Virus record (IMG/VR): IMGVR_UViG_3300027780_000059
Span: 1 to 27,166 of that record
Reading direction: 5' to 3' (one strand)
DNA length: 27,166 nt
From: a virus
Taxonomy: Duplodnaviria; Caudoviricetes
The position numbers were made by a program, and so were the translations under genes. The stretch's first letter is position 1. Each line of letters starts with the position of its first letter. Under the pieces are notes generated by a model. That model worked only from the letters and a program-made list of their open reading frames with translations. It made no database searches and was not told the DNA's origin. This document shows positions 1 through 25,787 of the stretch, piece after piece.

Positions 1-897
1 ATCTAAATCTACGGATAATTTTTCTCCGTTAGCAGAGGTAACATTCATTCTATCACCTAATGCTCCAGTTTCTTCAAAATCAAAACCGTATTGATTAAAA
101 TGGTAATTCAATAAAGGCACTGCCTGTTCTTCAGATCCGCTAATTAGTTCTTGATTAACAGTGTTTATAGAAGACGAGAAAGGATCATTTGCTTGGGTTT
201 CAATAGTGTCAATATTGTCAGTAAACTCATTAAAAACCTTGTTCTCAACTTCAACTTCATTTATAGATGTTTTATTTTTCCAAGAACCTTTACCATATGC
301 TAATGCTGATTCTTTATCTTTACCAAAATCAATAATTTCTCCTCTCTTTTTAGCCTCTTCATATACAGGCTTCCAGTCTATTTCTGCATCTTCAGACATA
401 TCAACAAACTCTCCGTCTTCATTTTGAAATACCGTAGGAAAAGAAAACCAATTTCCCTCACCATCAGTTTCTGTTTTCATTTTATGTGTAGATACAGAAC
501 CATCTTTATTATTTAATACTCCATTTCTGTCAGGAGCATTAGGTATTTTAACCCCTGACTGATCTTCAAAGTTTAATTCAGATTCATTAATTACACCCTC
601 TTCAACTACCTCGTCTACTTCTAAAGAGTCCGAATATCCATCTGTCTGTACAGATTCCGTAACTTCCTCCACCCCAGAAGAAATTTCTTCTTCCAAATTT
701 TCTTTTTTTTTTAAATCCCAAGCTGATTTAAACATATTAAGATCTGTTTGATTGCTTAATATTTTATTTTCTATACCTTGTTGATACAGCGTATCTTGTA
801 GTTCCGGATTTGCTGTAGAGAATTGCTCAAAAGTAGTTTCGCTACTTAAAACTCCTGCATTTATATAACTTTCGTAAAGGGCTTTTAATTTATCCAT
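1..897 (-). CDS. N-terminal 299 codons of a probably large internal virion/ejected protein (runs off the window edge)
   Basis: Not in the ORF track. Translated by hand from ATG at 897 (MDKLKALYESYINAGVLSSETTFEQF...) with no stop down to position 1. A-rich leader, starts 11 nt after the previous stop. Function inferred only from position after two candidate ejection proteins. Confidence 0.8.
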   Translation of the reverse strand, partial: MDKLKALYESYINAGVLSSETTFEQFSTANPELQDTLYQQGIENKILSNQTDLNMFKSAWDLKKKENLEEEISSGVEEVTESVQTDGYSDSLEVDEVVEEGVINESELNFEDQSGVKIPNAPDRNGVLNNKDGSVSTHKMKTETDGEGNWFSFPTVFQNEDGEFVDMSEDAEIDWKPVYEEAKKRGEIIDFGKDKESALAYGKGSWKNKTSINEVEVENKVFNEFTDNIDTIETQANDPFSSSINTVNQELISGSEEQAVPLLNYHFNQYGFDFEETGALGDRMNVTSANGEKLSVDLD

Positions 898-908
898 TTA
901 TTTATTTA

Positions 909-3065
909 TTATTTTATTACGTTACCCCAAGCATCTACTTTAGGTGATACCCCTGAACCCACTGGTTTATTTTTACCAGAGGCTTTACTTGAATTATATG
1001 CATCTATAATCTTATTTATTGCTGCGTCTACATCACTTTGAAGTTTAGCATTGTCTTCTTCATATTCAAAAGTAACAGGAACTTCTTTTTCAGTAACAGG
1101 GTCTTTATAAGTTATTGTAATAGAGTTGGTCGAACCGCTTTCATCTTTAGAGCTTACCTTTATGTCTAGTGATGATCCATAACTTTTTTGAACTTTATCT
1201 AAACCTAAATTAAAAGCTTTTAAAACTACAGGCGCTGCTTTTTCTTGGCTATTAAAATCGCTCCCTGGTATTACCATAAACTCATCAGACATTGATGTAG
1301 GGTTTTTTGGGTCCAAAGAAATATTACTATTTGAATTATAATTATCTAATTTATTAAATGTTTTCTTTGTAGCAAAAGCTTCATCTCCTCCATACTCTGG
1401 ATTTGGAATCATGTTACCGTCTGCATCTTCTATCTCTTTTGGAGTAAAGTCCATACCGCTTGCTAAAGCTGACTCATAAAACTCATCAAATGACATATCT
1501 TTTGTTGCAGCTCTTGGAATTAATTCTCTATATATTTTTCGAGCAATATCTTTACTTGTTAAAGGTCTCTTTAAATCCAGCTCATCTGTTTGAGGGTCTC
1601 TAAAGAATTTATCTATCTTCATTGATATATTTTTACCTTTTACTGTTTTATCAATAATAATTTGATTTGCATTTCTATCAATACTATTAATCTTAGTGCT
1701 TCTGTCTGTGTAATTTGTTGACTCTAAAAATCTCTGATTCATGTCAGTTATTCTATCTTCAGAAACAGCAGCGCCCTCAGTACCTAAACCAGTTATTACA
1801 GTATTTATATCTCCAAAGTAAGCTTTATTTCTATCTTCTTCTTCTTTTACTCTTGTTGTGTTTGCTGTATCTTGTTGTTTCTGTTGCCCTGTAGCTCCTT
1901 TAGTTAAGGTTTCTACGTGAGATATCTGAGACTCAATTTCAGTATTAGCTAAACTACGAGCCTCTTTCATTTGCGCAGGACTTAATGTTGGTACTGGTCT
2001 TGACCCACTAACGTCTGCCTTCATCCAGTACTTTAAATCAGCTGCTTCTATGACTTTACCTTCTGCGTCAAATACACTATTATTTTTTAAATATTCTTCT
2101 TCTGTTTGAGCGTACTTATACCCACCGCTATTAAATAAAACTTGAGCAGCGTTTTCATTATTCGCATCACCTACCCTTCCAGTAAGAGTGTCAATTTTTA
2201 TTTCCTTCCATTGATCAAAAGTTATTTTCTTTCCAGTTAAATCTGATCCAAAATCCCCTAACTGCCTATAATCAGATACGGTTTTAACAGCACCTGCACC
2301 AGTTAAAACATTGTATTTAGGGCCACTAACAAAGGCTTTAATTATTTTACCAACCTGAGACGTAATACCCTTTGCTGCGTTTGTTAAACTAAACCTATCC
2401 TGCTGATACTTCATCAGGTCGTTCATCGTGTTAGGGTTCTGATAAGCAGCCTTGTTTTTGTAATAGTCAGGCATAACATTGTATGAACCACCCTTGTCTT
2501 TCCCCATGGTAACTAATTGAAGTTGCCCATTAATAGGATTAGACCATAATTTTTTGTTTTTTAAATTACCTAAAGCGCTTGTTAAATTGTTTTGATATAT
2601 CTCTAAACCACCAGCTTTGGGACCTAAAGTACCTTCAGCAATCTTTAACCTTTCTTTAGCCTCAGTAGCCCATTTATCCCATCCTTTTACGGCAGTATTT
2701 AAATTAGCGTACCCAGTTTTTTGTTGTTGCATAAAAAGCTTGTAGTCCTTTGGTTTAATTAAACCACGCTTTAACAAATCTGTTTGAACTCTTAAAGCCT
2801 CAATAGACATACTAGAACCATTGATAAGTAAACTCGCTGCGTCTTGATTATTTGTTCCCTCAATTTTACTCAATTGTTCCATTGAGTTTTGAGTTTCTGT
2901 ATCTATTGCGTCTTTCCTACCTTGTCTTTCATCCCTTATAGCTTCAGCGCCTTTTGTTAATTCACCGGCAATTTTATTCCAGTCAACTTGAGTACTTTCT
3001 ACATTTCTTTGAGCGTAAACAGAGTATTTATTTGCACCCTGTGGTATATTTTTATTTTCTGCCAT
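909..3065 (-). CDS. Putative internal virion/ejection protein, 718 aa
   Basis: Long ORF with helical, charged N-terminal half. Lies after tail stabilisation and GNAT genes, where podoviruses carry ejected core proteins. No catalytic motif recognised. Confidence 0.55.
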   Translation of the reverse strand: MAENKNIPQGANKYSVYAQRNVESTQVDWNKIAGELTKGAEAIRDERQGRKDAIDTETQNSMEQLSKIEGTNNQDAASLLINGSSMSIEALRVQTDLLKRGLIKPKDYKLFMQQQKTGYANLNTAVKGWDKWATEAKERLKIAEGTLGPKAGGLEIYQNNLTSALGNLKNKKLWSNPINGQLQLVTMGKDKGGSYNVMPDYYKNKAAYQNPNTMNDLMKYQQDRFSLTNAAKGITSQVGKIIKAFVSGPKYNVLTGAGAVKTVSDYRQLGDFGSDLTGKKITFDQWKEIKIDTLTGRVGDANNENAAQVLFNSGGYKYAQTEEEYLKNNSVFDAEGKVIEAADLKYWMKADVSGSRPVPTLSPAQMKEARSLANTEIESQISHVETLTKGATGQQKQQDTANTTRVKEEEDRNKAYFGDINTVITGLGTEGAAVSEDRITDMNQRFLESTNYTDRSTKINSIDRNANQIIIDKTVKGKNISMKIDKFFRDPQTDELDLKRPLTSKDIARKIYRELIPRAATKDMSFDEFYESALASGMDFTPKEIEDADGNMIPNPEYGGDEAFATKKTFNKLDNYNSNSNISLDPKNPTSMSDEFMVIPGSDFNSQEKAAPVVLKAFNLGLDKVQKSYGSSLDIKVSSKDESGSTNSITITYKDPVTEKEVPVTFEYEEDNAKLQSDVDAAINKIIDAYNSSKASGKNKPVGSGVSPKVDAWGNVIK

Positions 3066-4352: not shown

Positions 4353-5171
4353 CTACGGATTACTTTTCATCACGCTACTACCTACAGAAAACAACTCAAC
4401 AGGAACCGTTGAATTATTTGTTAATGTAAATTCCATGTAATAACCTCTTGCTCCATGCGACTCAGCAACAGCGCTTTTAACGTATGCAATGTATTGTCCA
4501 ACCGTAGGAACTGCTCCATTTGGCGGTGGCGTATTTAGAATTGTTATGCTTGTTGGTGTAACGGCTGTAATTACTCCAGCCAGTTTAGGGACATCAGCAA
4601 CACCAGCATTTATTGTAATACCAAATAATGTATCACCAATACTAACAACCGAGCCTGTTTGAACTGAGAAATCAATTACAGTATTATTACCAGCTATACC
4701 AGTAACAACAGTACAAACACCAACACCGTTAGCTGATCTCGCTTTCCAGTTAACAGTACCTGAATTGTTTCGTAAGAAACTAAACCACTCACCTTCTTTC
4801 TGCTCAAAATAAGTTCGCAACATTGACCCTGGACTACCGTCAGTTAAATCAGTAGTTAAACTAGTACACGCCCAAGCAGCATTTGAGCTGTCATTTGATG
4901 TTGTTGTCGATTCATACGACATAGTTTTAAATAATTTAATTGACTGAGTTGGCTGTGGATTAAATACACTTGTAATTGTAGAGCTGTAATTCTCTCCGTA
5001 AAATCGATTACGTGTTTCGTTTGTATTGTGTCGGTAAAGATCTCCACCACTAAAGCTATAAAAAAAACTATTCATACCTATCATGTATTCAGGTATAAAG
5101 CTATAGAAAGATGGGAACCCCTTTGCAGAGTCGCTATATGAAACGGTACTATTTGAACAATTTAAAGACAT
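4353..5171 (-). CDS. Separately encoded C-terminal part of crAss-like tail stabilisation (muzzle) protein, 272 aa
   Basis: Motifs TVSYSDSAKGFPSFYSFIPEYMIGMNSFFYSF, NRFYG, KLFKTMSYES, FEQKEGEWF and GARGYYMEFTLTN...ELFSV resemble, from recall, the C-terminal region of crAss-like stabilisation proteins. Confidence 0.65.
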   Translation of the reverse strand: MSLNCSNSTVSYSDSAKGFPSFYSFIPEYMIGMNSFFYSFSGGDLYRHNTNETRNRFYGENYSSTITSVFNPQPTQSIKLFKTMSYESTTTSNDSSNAAWACTSLTTDLTDGSPGSMLRTYFEQKEGEWFSFLRNNSGTVNWKARSANGVGVCTVVTGIAGNNTVIDFSVQTGSVVSIGDTLFGITINAGVADVPKLAGVITAVTPTSITILNTPPPNGAVPTVGQYIAYVKSAVAESHGARGYYMEFTLTNNSTVPVELFSVGSSVMKSNP

Positions 5172-5187
5172 ATTTTTTTATTTATTT

Positions 5188-6729
5188 TTATGGGCATACG
5201 TAAATAGTTTGGATAACACCTGACGCGTTTACTATTCCTGTAGTTGACGCACTATCACCGTCAAAAGTTCCAAAACCTCTATAATCAGTCCACGTAACCG
5301 TTGATGATCCAGTAGTTGATCCTGAATAAATTATATCACCAGTTTGAGGTAAAGTTCCAATTCCGTTGTGATATAAAAGTGTATCACACAAATAACCACA
5401 CCTACCATCATTTAAAGAAGAGGTTCCCGCTGTAGCGAAAAAAGAAGTGAGAGCAGTCCCACTGGTACAAGTAGCAGATGAAACAACAACACCATTCTGT
5501 ACACCTAAAGCAATAGTACCTGAAACATAGTAATATATAGTACCTGTATTATTTAAAGGATTAAGTCCACTTGAGTCTGTAAAAACAGAGTCATTAACTA
5601 CCGGGAAAGTGTTTGTCGCTGGAGGAACCACTTGAAAATAAATAGCTGTAGCTTGGGGAGTTTGACATACATTTGTTGGAGTCTGTGTTGAAGCTAAGAT
5701 ACTTGGTAACGCAGCAGTACAAGCAGCCGAAGAAACAACAACACCGTTTCTTACACCGATTGCAGTAGTGTTTCCTATTATGTAATACTGTATAGTAGCA
5801 GTATCATTTAAGTAAGTAGCTCCATTTACATCCGTAAAAACAAAGTTCCCAACATTAGGGATTGTGTTTGTGTCAACCGTAAAAGGAACATTTGTTCCTG
5901 TTGCATTTTTTGCGAAATAATATGTTTGAGTATTTACTGCACATGCCGTTGTAGACTGTGCAACTGAAGAGCCAAAACTTGACAACCCAGCAGGGCAATC
6001 TAATTCATATGCAAAAAAAGTTCTACACGCTGGAGCTGATATTTTTAAATTTAAAGAAGTTGGACTTGCGCTTGCTTTTGGTATTACCATTGTAAACACT
6101 GGACTTCCACTTAAAGCCCGACCACACATAGCGTTTGTTACTGTTAATGGATTTAAAGTTCCCTGTGCAACATAAGAAGATCCAGCGTAACTATAATTTT
6201 CAGGAGCATCACCGGTATTACAAACCCCAGGTGTAACACTTGTGTTTGTGTAAGCTCTAATTATATTAGCAGTGTCACTGCCTACGTAAGTAGGGTCTCC
6301 TGTTCCTTGGTTTCCAATACCTGAGTAATCAACTGCTGTTCCGGATCCGTCTACTAAAGTTGTACCATCGTTTCCTTGAGCTGTTAATCTATTGTAATTA
6401 ACAGAATTAAAATTAGCAATTACACCATCAGCAATACTATTCCCCATATAAAAGTATGCAACAACTGCACCTAAAGTATTACCTACATCAAAATTTATGT
6501 CAAAAAAACCATTCTGACTAAGAGATACAGAAATACCATTTCCACATGGAACACTACAATTACCACAGGCTTGTGCTACCAGTAAAACACCATTTGATTG
6601 TTGCCTTACAACACCACCCTGAGAATAAAAACCATCAGCCGCTAAAACCGACAAAGTACTATCCGTATACAGTGACGATGCCTGTGAAAAATTTAATCCG
6701 TCAAAACAATATGTTCCTAATACTCCCAT
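5188..6729 (-). CDS. Thr/Ser/Gly/Cys-rich modular virion protein (putative tail appendage or receptor-binding protein), 513 aa
   Basis: Beta-rich composition with about four Cys-bracketed modules, e.g. PNVGNFVFTDVNG..GVRNGVVVSSAAC and PVVNDSVFTDSSG..GVQNGVVVSSATC. Lies within the tail genes. Confidence 0.6.
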   Translation of the reverse strand: MGVLGTYCFDGLNFSQASSLYTDSTLSVLAADGFYSQGGVVRQQSNGVLLVAQACGNCSVPCGNGISVSLSQNGFFDINFDVGNTLGAVVAYFYMGNSIADGVIANFNSVNYNRLTAQGNDGTTLVDGSGTAVDYSGIGNQGTGDPTYVGSDTANIIRAYTNTSVTPGVCNTGDAPENYSYAGSSYVAQGTLNPLTVTNAMCGRALSGSPVFTMVIPKASASPTSLNLKISAPACRTFFAYELDCPAGLSSFGSSVAQSTTACAVNTQTYYFAKNATGTNVPFTVDTNTIPNVGNFVFTDVNGATYLNDTATIQYYIIGNTTAIGVRNGVVVSSAACTAALPSILASTQTPTNVCQTPQATAIYFQVVPPATNTFPVVNDSVFTDSSGLNPLNNTGTIYYYVSGTIALGVQNGVVVSSATCTSGTALTSFFATAGTSSLNDGRCGYLCDTLLYHNGIGTLPQTGDIIYSGSTTGSSTVTWTDYRGFGTFDGDSASTTGIVNASGVIQTIYVCP

Positions 6730-13475: not shown

Positions 13476-13510
13476 AAAAAAAAAGAGGCTACTTTTTTTT
13501 GTAGCCCCTT
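13476..13510 (-). terminator. Intrinsic terminator
   Basis: Minus strand GGGGCTAC-A8-GTAGCCTC stem-loop (one G-U pair) followed by T9, downstream of the 278-aa gene. Confidence 0.85.
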
Positions 13511-15076: not shown

Positions 15077-15105
15077 AAAAAAAAAGCCACCGTTTTAGGG
15101 TAGCT
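15077..15105 (-). terminator. Intrinsic terminator
   Basis: Minus strand GCTACC-CTAAAAC-GGTGGC stem-loop (one G-U pair) followed by T9, downstream of the 251-aa gene. Confidence 0.8.
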
Positions 15106-15909: not shown

Positions 15910-15953
15910 AAAAAAAAATAATTACCCTCGCTACTAGAACGAGGGTAGTTATT
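15910..15953 (-). terminator. Intrinsic terminator after the major capsid gene
   Basis: Minus strand AACTACCCTCG-TTCTAGTAG-CGAGGGTAATT long stem followed by a T9 tract. Confidence 0.88.
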
Positions 15954-18628: not shown

Positions 18629-19852
18629 TTATGTCATCCTTATTTTAACATTATTATTGTCTCTGTATAATCCACCAATCGGCACACCACCAGCAGCGGC
18701 AGTTGTGTCGTTTGCAAAACTTGAACTACTTTGTAATGCCGGTAAAACAGTAATACCATTCTTTAATATAGAAAATGCTGTGCTTTTAGAGGCGTCTGTA
18801 TCTCCGTTACCTATAGTAAACAACCTATCTGTTGCAACCCAAGAACCAGGAGTCGGAGTGGTAGCTGCGTCTGACGCAAATGTACCCATTATAGTCTCCT
18901 TGTAAGCTTGACTCGTTAATCCCTCACCAATAGTTATTGAACCAAGAGTTGCTGAAGTATTATCTTTACCAATTGCTATAGAAATATTTCCACTTGCTGT
19001 TGTGTCTTGTCCCATTGCTGTAGAATAATCTCCAGTTGCGTTTGTGTCTCTTCCCATTGCTGTAGAATAAGATCCATCTGCTGTTGTGTTTCTTCCCATT
19101 GCTGTAGACCAAGATCCACTAGCCACTGATCCGCTACCCATTGCTGTAGAGAAAGGAGATGTTGCTTCTGTAAACCATCCAAAAGCTGTAGAACCTTGAG
19201 AAGTCGCTTGTGTTGTATTTCCAGCAGCAAAAGAATAAGAAGAAGTCGCTTGTGTTGACTTACCTAAAGCAGTAGAACCTAATCCACTTGCAGTGCTACT
19301 TTCTCCCATTGCCGTAGAATAATTACCACTTGCTGTAGTAGAATAACCTAGAGCTACAGATACACTACCAGTTGATGCGTTTGCAGACCCTATAGCTATT
19401 GAAGCTTCGCCATCCGCAGTCATAGACCCTGTCGCACCTATTATAACTGAGTCATTTCCAACGCCTTTCTTTATAGGTCCATCGGTTAGTGTTGTAGAAG
19501 ACCCAGAGCCTGACCACACAGAAAGTGTTCCTCCTGTGCCTGTTCCAACACTAGGGGATGGAATATTTAAAACCCCACTTACTAAAGTAGATAATCCTGA
19601 TCCTGTTGTCGTTAGACTTGTAAAAGGAATTACCGGTGTAGGTATATTTAACACACCAACAATCAAAGTAGCTGCCGAGCCTGAAGACCCTGTTGTTGTT
19701 AAGCTAGTGACGGAGCCACCTCCCACACTGTCTTCAATGTCCTGCATTGTAAAGACTTCTCTGTCTGAGTTTGCTTGAGCCGATCCTTTATTCGTAGTGT
19801 CTACGTGTGCTGAAACTGTATGAAATTTTTGTCCTGCTGGTATAGTTGCCAT
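18629..19852 (-). CDS. Fibre/adhesin-like virion protein with YadA-head-like repeats, 407 aa
   Basis: About 12 14-aa repeats of type STAMGxxTxAxGxY, a neck-like LFTIGNG..AFSILKNG segment, and C-terminal AAAGGVPIGGLYR motif. Confidence 0.8.
   Translation of the reverse strand: MATIPAGQKFHTVSAHVDTTNKGSAQANSDREVFTMQDIEDSVGGGSVTSLTTTGSSGSAATLIVGVLNIPTPVIPFTSLTTTGSGLSTLVSGVLNIPSPSVGTGTGGTLSVWSGSGSSTTLTDGPIKKGVGNDSVIIGATGSMTADGEASIAIGSANASTGSVSVALGYSTTASGNYSTAMGESSTASGLGSTALGKSTQATSSYSFAAGNTTQATSQGSTAFGWFTEATSPFSTAMGSGSVASGSWSTAMGRNTTADGSYSTAMGRDTNATGDYSTAMGQDTTASGNISIAIGKDNTSATLGSITIGEGLTSQAYKETIMGTFASDAATTPTPGSWVATDRLFTIGNGDTDASKSTAFSILKNGITVLPALQSSSSFANDTTAAAGGVPIGGLYRDNNNVKIRMT
18900..19420. 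repeat. Degenerate 42-bp coding tandem repeat (YadA-like)
   Basis: cccattgctgtaga at 19011, 19053, 19095 and 19137 (42-bp spacing), with variant cccattgccgtaga at 19305 in the same register. Confidence 0.9.
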
Positions 19853-24577: not shown

Positions 24578-24830
24578 ATCCTTTTGGTGTGTTATTTGAT
24601 TTATTGTCTACTCCGTCTATTAAATCTTTTTCTTCTGTTATTCTTTTTAATATTTCAAAAGCATCAAATATTGCAAGTTTTTTAGTAGCGGCTGCATTCT
24701 TTAATTTGTCAGCAGCAAGCTCGTCATCCTCACCGTATTTTATAATCTGCTCTTGAGCAACCTGAATTAACTGAAGCACAGCCTTTTCGCCTGCGTTTAT
24801 TATTTGTAATTTAATTTTATTTACATCCAT
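24555..24830 (-). CDS. Putative terminase small subunit, 91 aa
   Basis: Small all-helical protein overlapping the terL start by 23 nt. Assignment by position only. Confidence 0.5.
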   Translation of the reverse strand: MDVNKIKLQIINAGEKAVLQLIQVAQEQIIKYGEDDELAADKLKNAAATKKLAIFDAFEILKRITEEKDLIDGVDNKSNNTPKGFAESRSR

Positions 24831-25227
24831 AATAATATTCTTTATTAAAAGTATGGTCTCTGTAATTTGCTACAATTTCTTCATCTTTATTAATAGGTTT
24901 TATTGCAATTAAAACAGAATCATTATTTTCTTTTAAAAATAAAAACTTAACATTACACATTGGACTATGATTAACATATCTACCTAAATAAGTTCGATTG
25001 TTATCCCTCATTCCAAAACCTATTTTGTCGCCAATAATAAAATCTTTTTTAGCAAAAATTCCTTTTCCTTTTATTTTTGATTTTGCTACAACATAATTTT
25101 TATTTTTATCATCAACAACCTTACCTGCTTTTAATAAAAATTGTTTACTTTTTAAATATTTTTCTAGAAGCTTTGGGTCAATATTATTTTCTTTTAACAT
25201 CTTAAACCAATCCTCTAACTCTATCAT
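24817..25227 (-). CDS. SET-domain protein (putative lysine methyltransferase), 136 aa
   Basis: Three SET signatures in order: SKIKGKGIFAKKD (GxG), GRYVNHSPMCN (RFINHSCxPN-like), INKDEEIVANY (GEELxxDY-like). Confidence 0.85.
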   Translation of the reverse strand: MIELEDWFKMLKENNIDPKLLEKYLKSKQFLLKAGKVVDDKNKNYVVAKSKIKGKGIFAKKDFIIGDKIGFGMRDNNRTYLGRYVNHSPMCNVKFLFLKENNDSVLIAIKPINKDEEIVANYRDHTFNKEYYYGCK

Positions 25228-25787
25228 AAAACTACCGTTATATTGTCAGTATACATTCTGTAAAGCAACTCATCATCAACCATAAACTCATACTCTGAGT
25301 CTGGCTGATACAGAACTACATCACCAACTTTTACTCCTTTATCTAGTAGCTGTTGATTTATATACTTTACAGTTCCGGTTAATGGCTCAAACTTACAATT
25401 CTTCTTGAGATACGTTTCTTTAGCCGGTAAAGGCTGAATAAAACAATACTTATCATACCCTACCCAACCGTCACTATTTTTATACATATAAAACTGGTCT
25501 ACATCTACAAAAAAAAGATCTTCTTTAAAAAAGCTTTTTCCACTTTTTCTGTTACCATACATGTCATTGTAAAATTTAAAAACATTATGGTGTACCAAAA
25601 GAGTATCTCCTTTTTCAACAGGCCCATTATAGCCAATAGGCGTGGCTACAACTTTAGCAAATCTATTAGAAGACTTGTGGTCTTCTTCGGATGTACTTGT
25701 AAGGAATTTATGATCTCCGTATTTTTTTATATTATCATATCTCCTACCCTCTAAAGGTTGGACAATAAAATTGTAAGGTGATTGCAT
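25224..25787 (-). CDS. Co-chaperonin GroES-like protein with two tandem domains, 187 aa
   Basis: Two GroES-like units: FIVQP..AKVVATP..VEKGDTLL and CFIQP..GTVKY..VKVGDVVLY..EYEFMVDDELLYRM..NITVV. Confidence 0.7.
   Translation of the reverse strand: MQSPYNFIVQPLEGRRYDNIKKYGDHKFLTSTSEEDHKSSNRFAKVVATPIGYNGPVEKGDTLLVHHNVFKFYNDMYGNRKSGKSFFKEDLFFVDVDQFYMYKNSDGWVGYDKYCFIQPLPAKETYLKKNCKFEPLTGTVKYINQQLLDKGVKVGDVVLYQPDSEYEFMVDDELLYRMYTDNITVVL

Follow-up and report, generated by a model that had tools for sequence, protein, structure and literature searches.

Slippage on a run of A, by which one gene yields two proteins, has been described in several bacteria, and these systems are the closest counterparts of the element treated here, an A10 run near the start of a giant phage gene. 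The DNA is the IMG/VR virus record IMGVR_UViG_3300027780_000059, analysed over its entire length of 27,166 bp (the window; completeness estimate 45%). The run lies at 703..712 within the gene 897..1 on the minus strand, which reads TGG GAT TTA AAA AAA AAA GAA over it. Judged from sequence and comparison, it is rather probable that the run serves as a conserved recoding site through slippage of RNA polymerase. It would then give the full-length giant protein together with a protein of ~98 residues, the latter joining the N-terminal domain to a 33-residue aromatic and basic tail from the -1 frame. Full-text literature searches, judged at abstract level, found no published description of the site.

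Described slippage systems and the present locus

The bacterial systems compared below are taken mainly from two articles (PMC5009743 and PMC4256274). Thermus thermophilus dnaX owes its short product, the gamma of the tau/gamma pair, to transcriptional slippage within an A run (PMC5009743). The phage gene would behave in the same way: one open reading frame (ORF) specifies the long product, and slipped mRNAs with extra bases soon end in a shifted frame, giving a short product with the same N-terminus. In Thermus dnaX, both shifted frames just meet nearby stops, whereas in the phage gene one shifted frame encodes a conserved tail of 30-45 residues. The phage site also differs in belonging to a virion-protein gene and in that its slippage is predicted from sequence.

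In Citrobacter rodentium tssM1, an A11 tract gives transcripts with 10-15 A and ~20% frameshifting with no mRNA stimulator nearby, and for tssM1 and tssM3 both length variants and their ratio matter (PMC4256274). The phage locus resembles C. rodentium tssM1 and Yersinia tssM3 in that the poly-A tract sits in a structural gene, tssM being part of a phage-tail-like machine. Near the phage run, RNAalifold on ten sequences detected no conserved stimulatory structure. In tssM1 the unslipped transcript encodes the short product and slippage restores the long one; in contrast, unslipped A10 mRNA of the phage would encode the giant protein. The A9 records of phi18:3-like Cellulophaga phages and of Maribacter phage Panino (see below) would match the tssM1 arrangement if they are real.

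Escherichia coli dnaX has the same kind of slip sequence (A_AAA_AAG), used there for a -1 ribosomal frameshift, and its short product likewise has the N-terminus of the long one (PMC5009743). The E. coli site uses a 3' stem-loop, whereas at the phage site no conserved structure was found and the run exceeds the length required by a ribosome. A Shine-Dalgarno-like stimulator on the 5' side also contributes in E. coli dnaX. Transcriptional slippage is further described for Shigella mxiE and spa13, in spa13 after 58 codons, with 25-30% of the product carrying a different C-terminal part (PMC5009743). The phage run is similarly early in its gene and would give an alternative C-terminal part, but slippage extends the spa13 protein, whereas in the phage it would swap >2,000 residues for a 33-residue tail.

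The phage locus can also be set beside the tail assembly chaperone genes G/GT of sipho- and myoviruses. There a ribosomal -1 shift on a non-homopolymer heptamer makes a longer shifted product, and the gene lies between tail tube and tape measure. As with G/GT, the present locus is part of a phage structural module and would supply two proteins with one N-terminal domain at a set ratio. It does not belong to that group, however, since it is the giant last gene of a podophage module and its shifted product is shorter. By analogy the site would work like Thermus dnaX and tssM1, differing in that it lies in a phage virion gene, has a shifted frame with its own conserved module, and occurs in several phage families.

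The A10 run and the frames around it

The features of the gene are the following.

1..897, minus strand: giant virion-protein gene, 5' part, 299 codons, open at the record end; last gene of the structural module
713..897, minus strand: N-terminal domain, amino acids (aa) 1-61/62, common to both predicted products; two helix-loop-helix repeats in the AlphaFold2 (AF2) model of the homologous P0013
703..712, minus strand: A10 run, slip site (TTA AAA AAA AAA G) predicted from sequence
602..712, minus strand: -1 frame ORF, KKK plus the 33-codon tail RKFGRRNFFWGGGSYGICTDRWIFGLFRSRRGS, TGA at 604..602; from translation, resampling and cross-lineage conservation
621..702, minus strand: +1 ('third') frame, (K)KIWKKKFLLGWRKLRNLYRQMDIRTL, 26 codons, TAG at 623..621; not conserved
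653..667, minus strand: conserved core GGAAGTTACGGAATC, frame 0 EEVTES, -1 frame GSYGI; exact 15-mer in 50 homologous IMG/VR loci
623..634, minus strand: TTCGGACTCTTT, frame 0 SDSL, -1 frame FGLF (conserved F-G-aromatic-F motif); from lineage comparison
728..730, minus strand: TAA closing the -1 frame five codons upstream of the run; from translation

The run separates an N-terminal domain of ~62 aa, which matches phrog_32588 (positions 2-82 of 1686, E 1.7e-8), from the acidic linker of a protein of >2,000 aa. A preliminary description of the window had placed the A10 run, its codon reading, the TGA of the -1 frame and the TAG of the +1 frame exactly where they are. Its statement that the run is the longest coding homopolymer also holds. 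A10 is the sole homopolymer of at least 10 in the window, and no other of at least 9 falls in coding sequence; the remaining A9 runs, three on the plus strand, are intergenic.

Just upstream of the run both shifted frames are shut, because a TAA at 713..711 closes a shifted frame in addition to the TAA at 728..730. In relatives that encode EKKN at the junction, a TGA abutting the run closes the -1 frame. Open length downstream was compared with a null in which synonymous codons were redrawn 20,000 times according to codon usage in the window. The -1 frame has no stop for 33 codons, the resampled median being 11 (P=0.0035). For the +1 frame the corresponding P is 0.089, and this ORF is probably a by-product frame.

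An A run in an AT-rich genome could also arise with no recoding at all. AAA accounts for 324 of the 420 Lys codons in the window, so that codon bias by itself would make KKK an A run. Shifted frames of Glu/Asp/Ser-rich sequence are automatically rich in Arg, Gly and Phe, and the 'tail' would then mirror the acidic, Ser-rich frame-0 linker or a nucleotide-level signal. A9 runs are in fact no commoner in the window than in shuffled versions of it: the A9 pattern matches five times where 5.33 matches are expected, and a count of at least five occurs in 57 of 100 shuffles. What goes beyond chance is the open -1 frame, together with the conservation of run and frame in relatives.

Conservation of the run in relatives

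A protein-guided scan of IMG/VR gave 24 loci. The run at the junction is A10 in 22 of these and A12 in two (L023 and L025), and in most of the 24 it is the only homopolymer of at least 9 within 9-12 kb. A second, independent scan with the exact 15-mer of 653..667 gave 88 loci, 50 of them homologous (39 distinct) and partly on the same contigs as those of the first scan. The other 38 loci, which have no A run, were set aside as unrelated chance matches in other sequence contexts. All 50 homologous loci carry exactly A10 and have the N-terminal domain in frame with the giant ORF; their -1 ORFs span 29-40 codons.

The codon context varies by lineage, being either TTA/CTA/ATA/GTA AAA AAA AAA G (xKKK, e.g., LKKK or VKKK) or GAA AAA AAA AAT (EKKN). 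Run length is thus constant while codon phase and encoded residues change, which argues against a by-product of Lys codon bias. An AAG interruption of the run was found in no homologue compared.

The run is also present in phages matched with the portal protein (see below), among them cultured phages of Flavobacterium (elemo) and Cellulophaga (phi38:1), for example:

Flavobacterium phage elemo p90 ('structural protein'): 3,695 aa; A10; -1 ORF of 43 codons, with FGF/FGIF
Cellulophaga phage phi38:1 gp101: 1,692 aa; A10; -1 ORF of 24 codons, ending FGWFRL
Freshwater phage MW202828.1: 3,860 aa; A11; -1 ORF of 25 codons, without the tail motif

In each of the three the run is the sole homopolymer of at least 8 in a gene of 5-11.6 kb. 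For the elemo isolates, 68 of 68 records match at >=99% identity, and among the matches listed the rows across the run are 100% identical. In seven assemblies among those matches, the first base is precisely the first or the second A of the run, which may reflect an assembly break at the homopolymer. Two other loci, L010 and L014, have a second A10 run (5936..5945) 2 nt upstream of the giant-gene ATG.

Evidence for coding in the -1 frame

From its opening at the run, the -1 ORF extends ~30-45 codons to its stop. The consensus of the tails is a basic start, F-x-[FW], G-S-Y-G-I, a turn, [WYF]-x-[FIL]-G-[FLWYI]-[FL], basic residues and the stop; among 32 aligned tails the two glycines are invariant. 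Open length of the -1 frame exceeds the resampling null (P<0.05) in 14 of 15 lineages, the remaining one being phi38:1 (P=0.0502). The +1 frame exceeds it in only three of the 15, and in L021 it meets a stop after two codons.

These figures bear on the preliminary description, which had proposed a candidate one-gene, three-product switch and, as a check, a test for stop-codon depletion in both shifted frames. Two of its products, the long protein and the ~98-aa -1 product, are strongly supported by the comparison. The third, a 91-aa +1 product, is not: its frame is within the resampling null in 12 of 15 lineages and is the least conserved of the three. Stop depletion, likewise, is found for the -1 frame and is mostly lacking for the +1 frame. 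The same description had looked to homologues for a conserved A run, and the 22 of 24 and 50 of 50 loci with an uninterrupted A10 bear it out. It had also observed that G-ending codons (TTG GAA, GTG GAG, ACG GAA, TCG GAC) avoid stops in alternative frames, and ACG/ATG GAA and TCG GAT are indeed kept across lineages. ACG accounts for 45 of 579 Thr codons and TCG for 32 of 659 Ser codons; both of these rare codons are retained before GAx, where T would make a TGA in the -1 frame.

As controls for the overlap segment, two ordinary blocks were taken from elsewhere in this gene, in the same set of genomes. The statistics below are pairwise and rest on related, non-independent sequences; all of them point in the same direction.

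Peptide identity in frame 0 / -1 / +1: overlap 0.45/0.50/0.39; control 1 0.80/0.59/0.58; control 2 0.57/0.39/0.41
Mismatch at codon positions 1/2/3: overlap 0.377/0.41/0.368; control 1 0.187/0.083/0.347; control 2 0.306/0.196/0.507
Pair-columns with frame 0 different and -1 the same, against the reverse: overlap 96 vs 58; control 1 44 vs 332; control 2 59 vs 211

The most variable position in the overlap is codon position 2, which is the wobble base of the -1 frame. Substitutions that change frame 0 and are silent in the -1 frame can be seen directly. For example, GTT ACG GAA (VTE) has become GCT ATG GAA (AME) in L017-L019, two frame-0 changes that both leave SYG in the -1 frame. At conserved residues, synonymous-codon identity is 0.72 in the overlap against 0.57 elsewhere. 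On these sequence grounds the -1 peptide is at least as constrained as frame 0 in the overlap.

For the view that there is no recoding, it can be said that the +1 frame, too, exceeds an independent-resampling null for identity. That view has to be set against the constant run beneath changing residues (EKKN vs LKKK), a -1 frame open beyond the resampling null where the +1 frame mostly is not, and a -1 peptide at least as well conserved as frame 0, with frame-0-changing, -1-silent substitutions. The -1 stop is moreover confined to 29-40 codons in the 50 loci, and no RNA structure was found that would account for conservation at the nucleotide level. We regard it as the least probable of the explanations considered, and a very improbable one.

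A profile built from the 32 tails was searched against 1.84 billion representative proteins (E <= 0.001). It recovered 22 small ORFs of 76-112 aa (best E 9.5e-13), in which the tail forms the C-terminus and is preceded by KKK and varied N-terminal domains. To judge from sequence, these ORFs, in which domain and tail are continuous (the tail state), widen the family.

Internal starts after A-rich leaders are common in Bacteroidota. Translation from an internal start behind the run was considered and rejected, as no start codon is conserved there.

The predicted short protein

A structure was predicted with AF2 for P0013, a natural tail-state ORF, from an alignment of N-terminal domains and tails. 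In the model, helices at 2-13, 23-27, 31-43 and 53-61 form two helix-loop-helix repeats, after which the chain is laid out as a three-stranded beta meander. The short protein is therefore predicted to consist of four helices and a three-stranded amphipathic beta meander. The tails contain 8-11 aromatic and 5-16 basic residues, are rich in Gly, and have net charges of +5 to +15. The preliminary description had suggested that such cationic, aromatic tails could bind membrane or DNA, which for the -1 tail would be a candidate activity. A Foldseek search of the model against the PDB gave nothing at E <= 0.001, and in the VIA wide fold search the best hit (Z 4.0) covered the helical N-terminal domain only. 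Look-alikes of P0013 in the ESM Atlas score up to 0.81 and serve as a lead only.

Run length in deposited genomes and RNA libraries

Several records depart from the A10, in-frame state. Cellulophaga phages phi18:3, phi19:3, phi46:3 and phi13:2 carry A9, and the N-terminal domain is a separate annotated ORF. In this group the giant ORF, in phi18:3 a virion protein annotated from tandem mass spectrometry (MS/MS), opens in the -1 frame of the N-terminal domain at the run, and the tail is in the +1 frame. Maribacter phage Panino also has A9 and the same layout, its giant coding sequence being annotated from an internal GTG. In the A12 locus L023 the frames are displaced in the same direction. Among short database ORFs, two represent the third-frame state, namely P0010 and P0002, the latter with 98% identity to the window. 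The tail state is seen in P0013, P0023, P0045 and others; of these, P0045 shares both N-terminal domain and tail with the in-frame L021.

Such differences could mean a genetic switch, in which replication slippage gives heritable A9, A10 and A11 variants (phase variation) and the two products come from different genomes of a population. The states just listed, with four Baltivirus/Bacelvirus records and Panino at A9 and L023 out of frame, are what this would produce. The distribution of the states speaks otherwise. Long Illumina-era loci are in frame in 23 of 24 cases in the protein-guided scan and in 50 of 50 in the 15-mer scan, and the elemo isolates are identical across the run among the matches listed. 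Those tail-state ORFs that were checked proved to be singletons, and their contigs are short. In addition, a variant losing an essential virion protein would die unless slippage rescued it. A genetic switch is thus very unlikely.

The Cellulophaga phage genomes are presumably 454 data. Panino was sequenced with MinION only, according to the part of its published methods dealing with sequencing. Both methods miscall long homopolymers, and therefore the A9 and other out-of-frame states may be homopolymer miscalls; one added A restores the usual EKKN or LKKKD junction in each A9 record. For the same reason, A9 in Panino and the phi18:3 group was rejected as proof of obligatory slippage. Deposited annotations are affected at this point, since the giant gene is split or mis-started at the run in phi18:3 (gp122 and gp123, TTG start; L030 21310..27440) and in Panino (CDS0069, GTG start; L027 18229..23909). 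Panino also has a spurious opposite-strand CDS0070 over the N-terminal domain.

For RNA and DNA, run length was read from assembled contigs of 24 sequencing runs (Logan). Minority variants stay hidden in contigs, and DNA may be present in RNA libraries. A10 is the length seen in DNA contigs, and two contigs terminate at the run or within it. Gaps in RNA-contig cover, e.g., window 734-950 in X15-X20, carry no meaning. In the RNA-library contig X18 (108 nt, depth ~10; window 616..712), the post-run sequence is joined to at least 20 A, T10 being continued by a further ten T. Read in the direction of the gene, the additional A's precede the post-run sequence on its 5' side, a position that fits neither oligo-dT priming nor A-tailing, and both artefacts were rejected. 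Being a single short contig that lacks a DNA control, X18 gives a weak hint of long insertions.

Proposed mechanism

Polymerase slippage, judged from sequence to be likely, would proceed as follows. The RNA:DNA hybrid of 9-10 bp would shift and pair again along the T10 template, so that part of the mRNA pool would have A11 or a run of another length. A10 mRNA would be translated into the giant protein and A11 mRNA into N-terminal domain, KKK and tail (~98 aa), with A9 or A12 mRNA yielding the non-conserved 91-aa by-product. Through the common N-terminal domain the short protein might share the giant protein's partner, acting with or on that partner, and as a matter of speculation it could be an adaptor, a chaperone or a stoichiometry setter for the giant protein.

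The same two products could be made from unaltered A10 mRNA by ribosomal -1 programmed frameshifting or sliding on A_AAA_AAA. The conserved product does sit in the -1 frame, and in the A9 records of the phi18:3 group the site reads A_AAA_AAG, the heptamer of E. coli dnaX. If those records are real, however, their tail is in +1/-2, out of reach of a simple -1 shift. RNAalifold on ten sequences detected no conserved stimulatory structure at a suitable spacing (six invariant pairs ~45 nt downstream, without covariation, -1.5 kcal/mol; pseudoknots not searched for), and the fold around the run in the window has a z of -0.75. Seven A's suffice for ribosomes, yet 50 of 50 loci hold exactly ten, with no shortening or interruption among them. 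Polymerase slippage is ranked first and the ribosomal shift second because an uninterrupted run of 9-12, nearly always 10, fits the length dependence of the polymerase, whereas a heptamer is enough for ribosomes. The ribosomal route is accordingly considered unlikely, though it is the foremost of the rivals.

Several points weigh against polymerase slippage at a conserved site. The A run taken alone is within chance for one AT-rich genome, and the pairwise statistics come, as stated, from related sequences. The A_AAA_AAA heptamer is in the zero frame in both codon phases, as a ribosomal site would have it. MW202828.1 retains A11, yet its 25-codon -1 ORF has no tail motif. The 22 tail-state ORFs are no proof of translation; of those checked, ten of ten proved to be singletons (contigs of 0.5-9.6 kb) and may be homopolymer errors. 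Confidence in the AF2 model of P0013 is moderate (pLDDT 77.5, pTM 0.49). Finally, the RNA-library contigs that bridge the run (X16, 4,008 nt; X20, 3,287 nt) show A10, the same as DNA.

A wider version of the slippage proposal would see a three-way expression node in several Flavobacteriia podophage families. Slippage would set a fixed ratio of a giant virion (ejection) protein to a small beta-tailed partner with the same N-terminal docking domain, and would be so efficient that some lineages (phi18:3-like Baltivirus, L023) would truly be one base short and make the essential giant protein only from slipped transcripts, with the run also serving as a recombination joint of N-terminal domains. 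In this full form the proposal is doubtful.

If slippage at the conserved run is correct, widespread marine and freshwater phages of Flavobacteriia encode a conserved protein of ~100 aa that is listed in no annotation, and the laboratory models Cellulophaga phi38:1 and phi18:3 and the Flavobacterium elemo phages are among them. The site would offer a system, both natural and open to culture, in which slippage by RNA polymerase of Bacteroidota can be studied, and would show how the ratio of a giant internal protein to a small partner becomes fixed during assembly. With phage-host pairs in culture and a public RNA-seq time course for phi38:1 (SRP066570; PMC5335546), the claim is directly testable.

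Genome context and the giant virion-protein gene

Every long ORF of the window is on the minus strand, and the genes form a podophage structural module. Pfam and PHROGs families identified include the large terminase (phrog_6681), the portal (phrog_6547) and several 'virion structural protein' families, and the C-terminal domain of the crAss muzzle (PF25729) is found within the gene at 4353..5171. A tblastn search with the portal matched 87 phage records, from Flavobacterium (68), Cellulophaga (15), Tenacibaculum (2), Maribacter (1) and an uncultured source (1). By sequence affiliation the window belongs to a podophage of Flavobacteriia whose structural module ends with the giant gene.

The giant-gene product is 1,692 to 3,860 aa long in relatives. 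The gene is complete in two loci (L007, 2,075 aa; L013, 2,244 aa) and runs for >2,200 aa before the locus end in the others. Gene position and the MS/MS-based annotations of relatives identify the product as a virion protein, annotated in cultured relatives as a structural protein, and it is probably an internal or ejection protein. Homology searches add little. No phage match was obtained by blastn with window 1-3000 or by tblastn with the 2,244-aa L013 protein, and phmmer with the L013 protein gave 0 matches in the PDB. Across the window protein and eight giant proteins, Pfam gave only DUF3293 in elemo p90 and a sub-threshold QSregVF_b. PHROGs gave the giant protein no functional assignment, with the N-terminus alone matching an unnamed family. 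In the corresponding region of Tenacibaculum phage Gundel_1, no obvious giant-gene homologue was seen.

The virion RNA polymerase of crAss-like phages (the phi14:2 gp66 kind) carries DxDGD as its metal-binding motif. Such a polymerase was considered for the giant protein and rejected at the sequence level, as D.DGD occurs in none of nine giant proteins and the L013 protein lacks a phmmer match in the PDB.

Other genes and intergenic runs of the module may be listed briefly. Proteins with a SET domain (24817..25227; PF00856, E 4.7e-8), with YadA-head repeats (18629..19852; PF05658) and of a GroES-like co-chaperonin family (25224..25787; phrog_13932) are encoded on the minus strand; the protein with YadA-head repeats is probably a fibre. 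The A9 runs at 13476..13484, 15077..15085 and 15910..15918 (plus strand; T9 in gene sense) occupy the three intergenic gaps of the structural module and may be terminator or promoter elements.

Exchange of modules in the giant gene

The architecture of the giant gene is mosaic. A module GSVSTHKMKTETDG..NWFSFPTVFQNEDG..EEAKKRGE, at ~300..560 of the window (minus strand), is limited to some giant-gene variants and also occurs as free-standing proteins of 112-129 aa (P0014, P0016, P0017, P0020 and P0021). N-terminal domains are swapped between otherwise near-identical genes, and the joint is exactly at the A run. For example, phi13:2 and phi18:3 match only from query nt 196, and the run begins at 198; L002, L005 and L008 have post-run DNA in common and unrelated N-terminal domains; and DNA contigs of X13 branch at window 713 into two N-terminal domain variants. 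The A run may thus double as a recombination joint.

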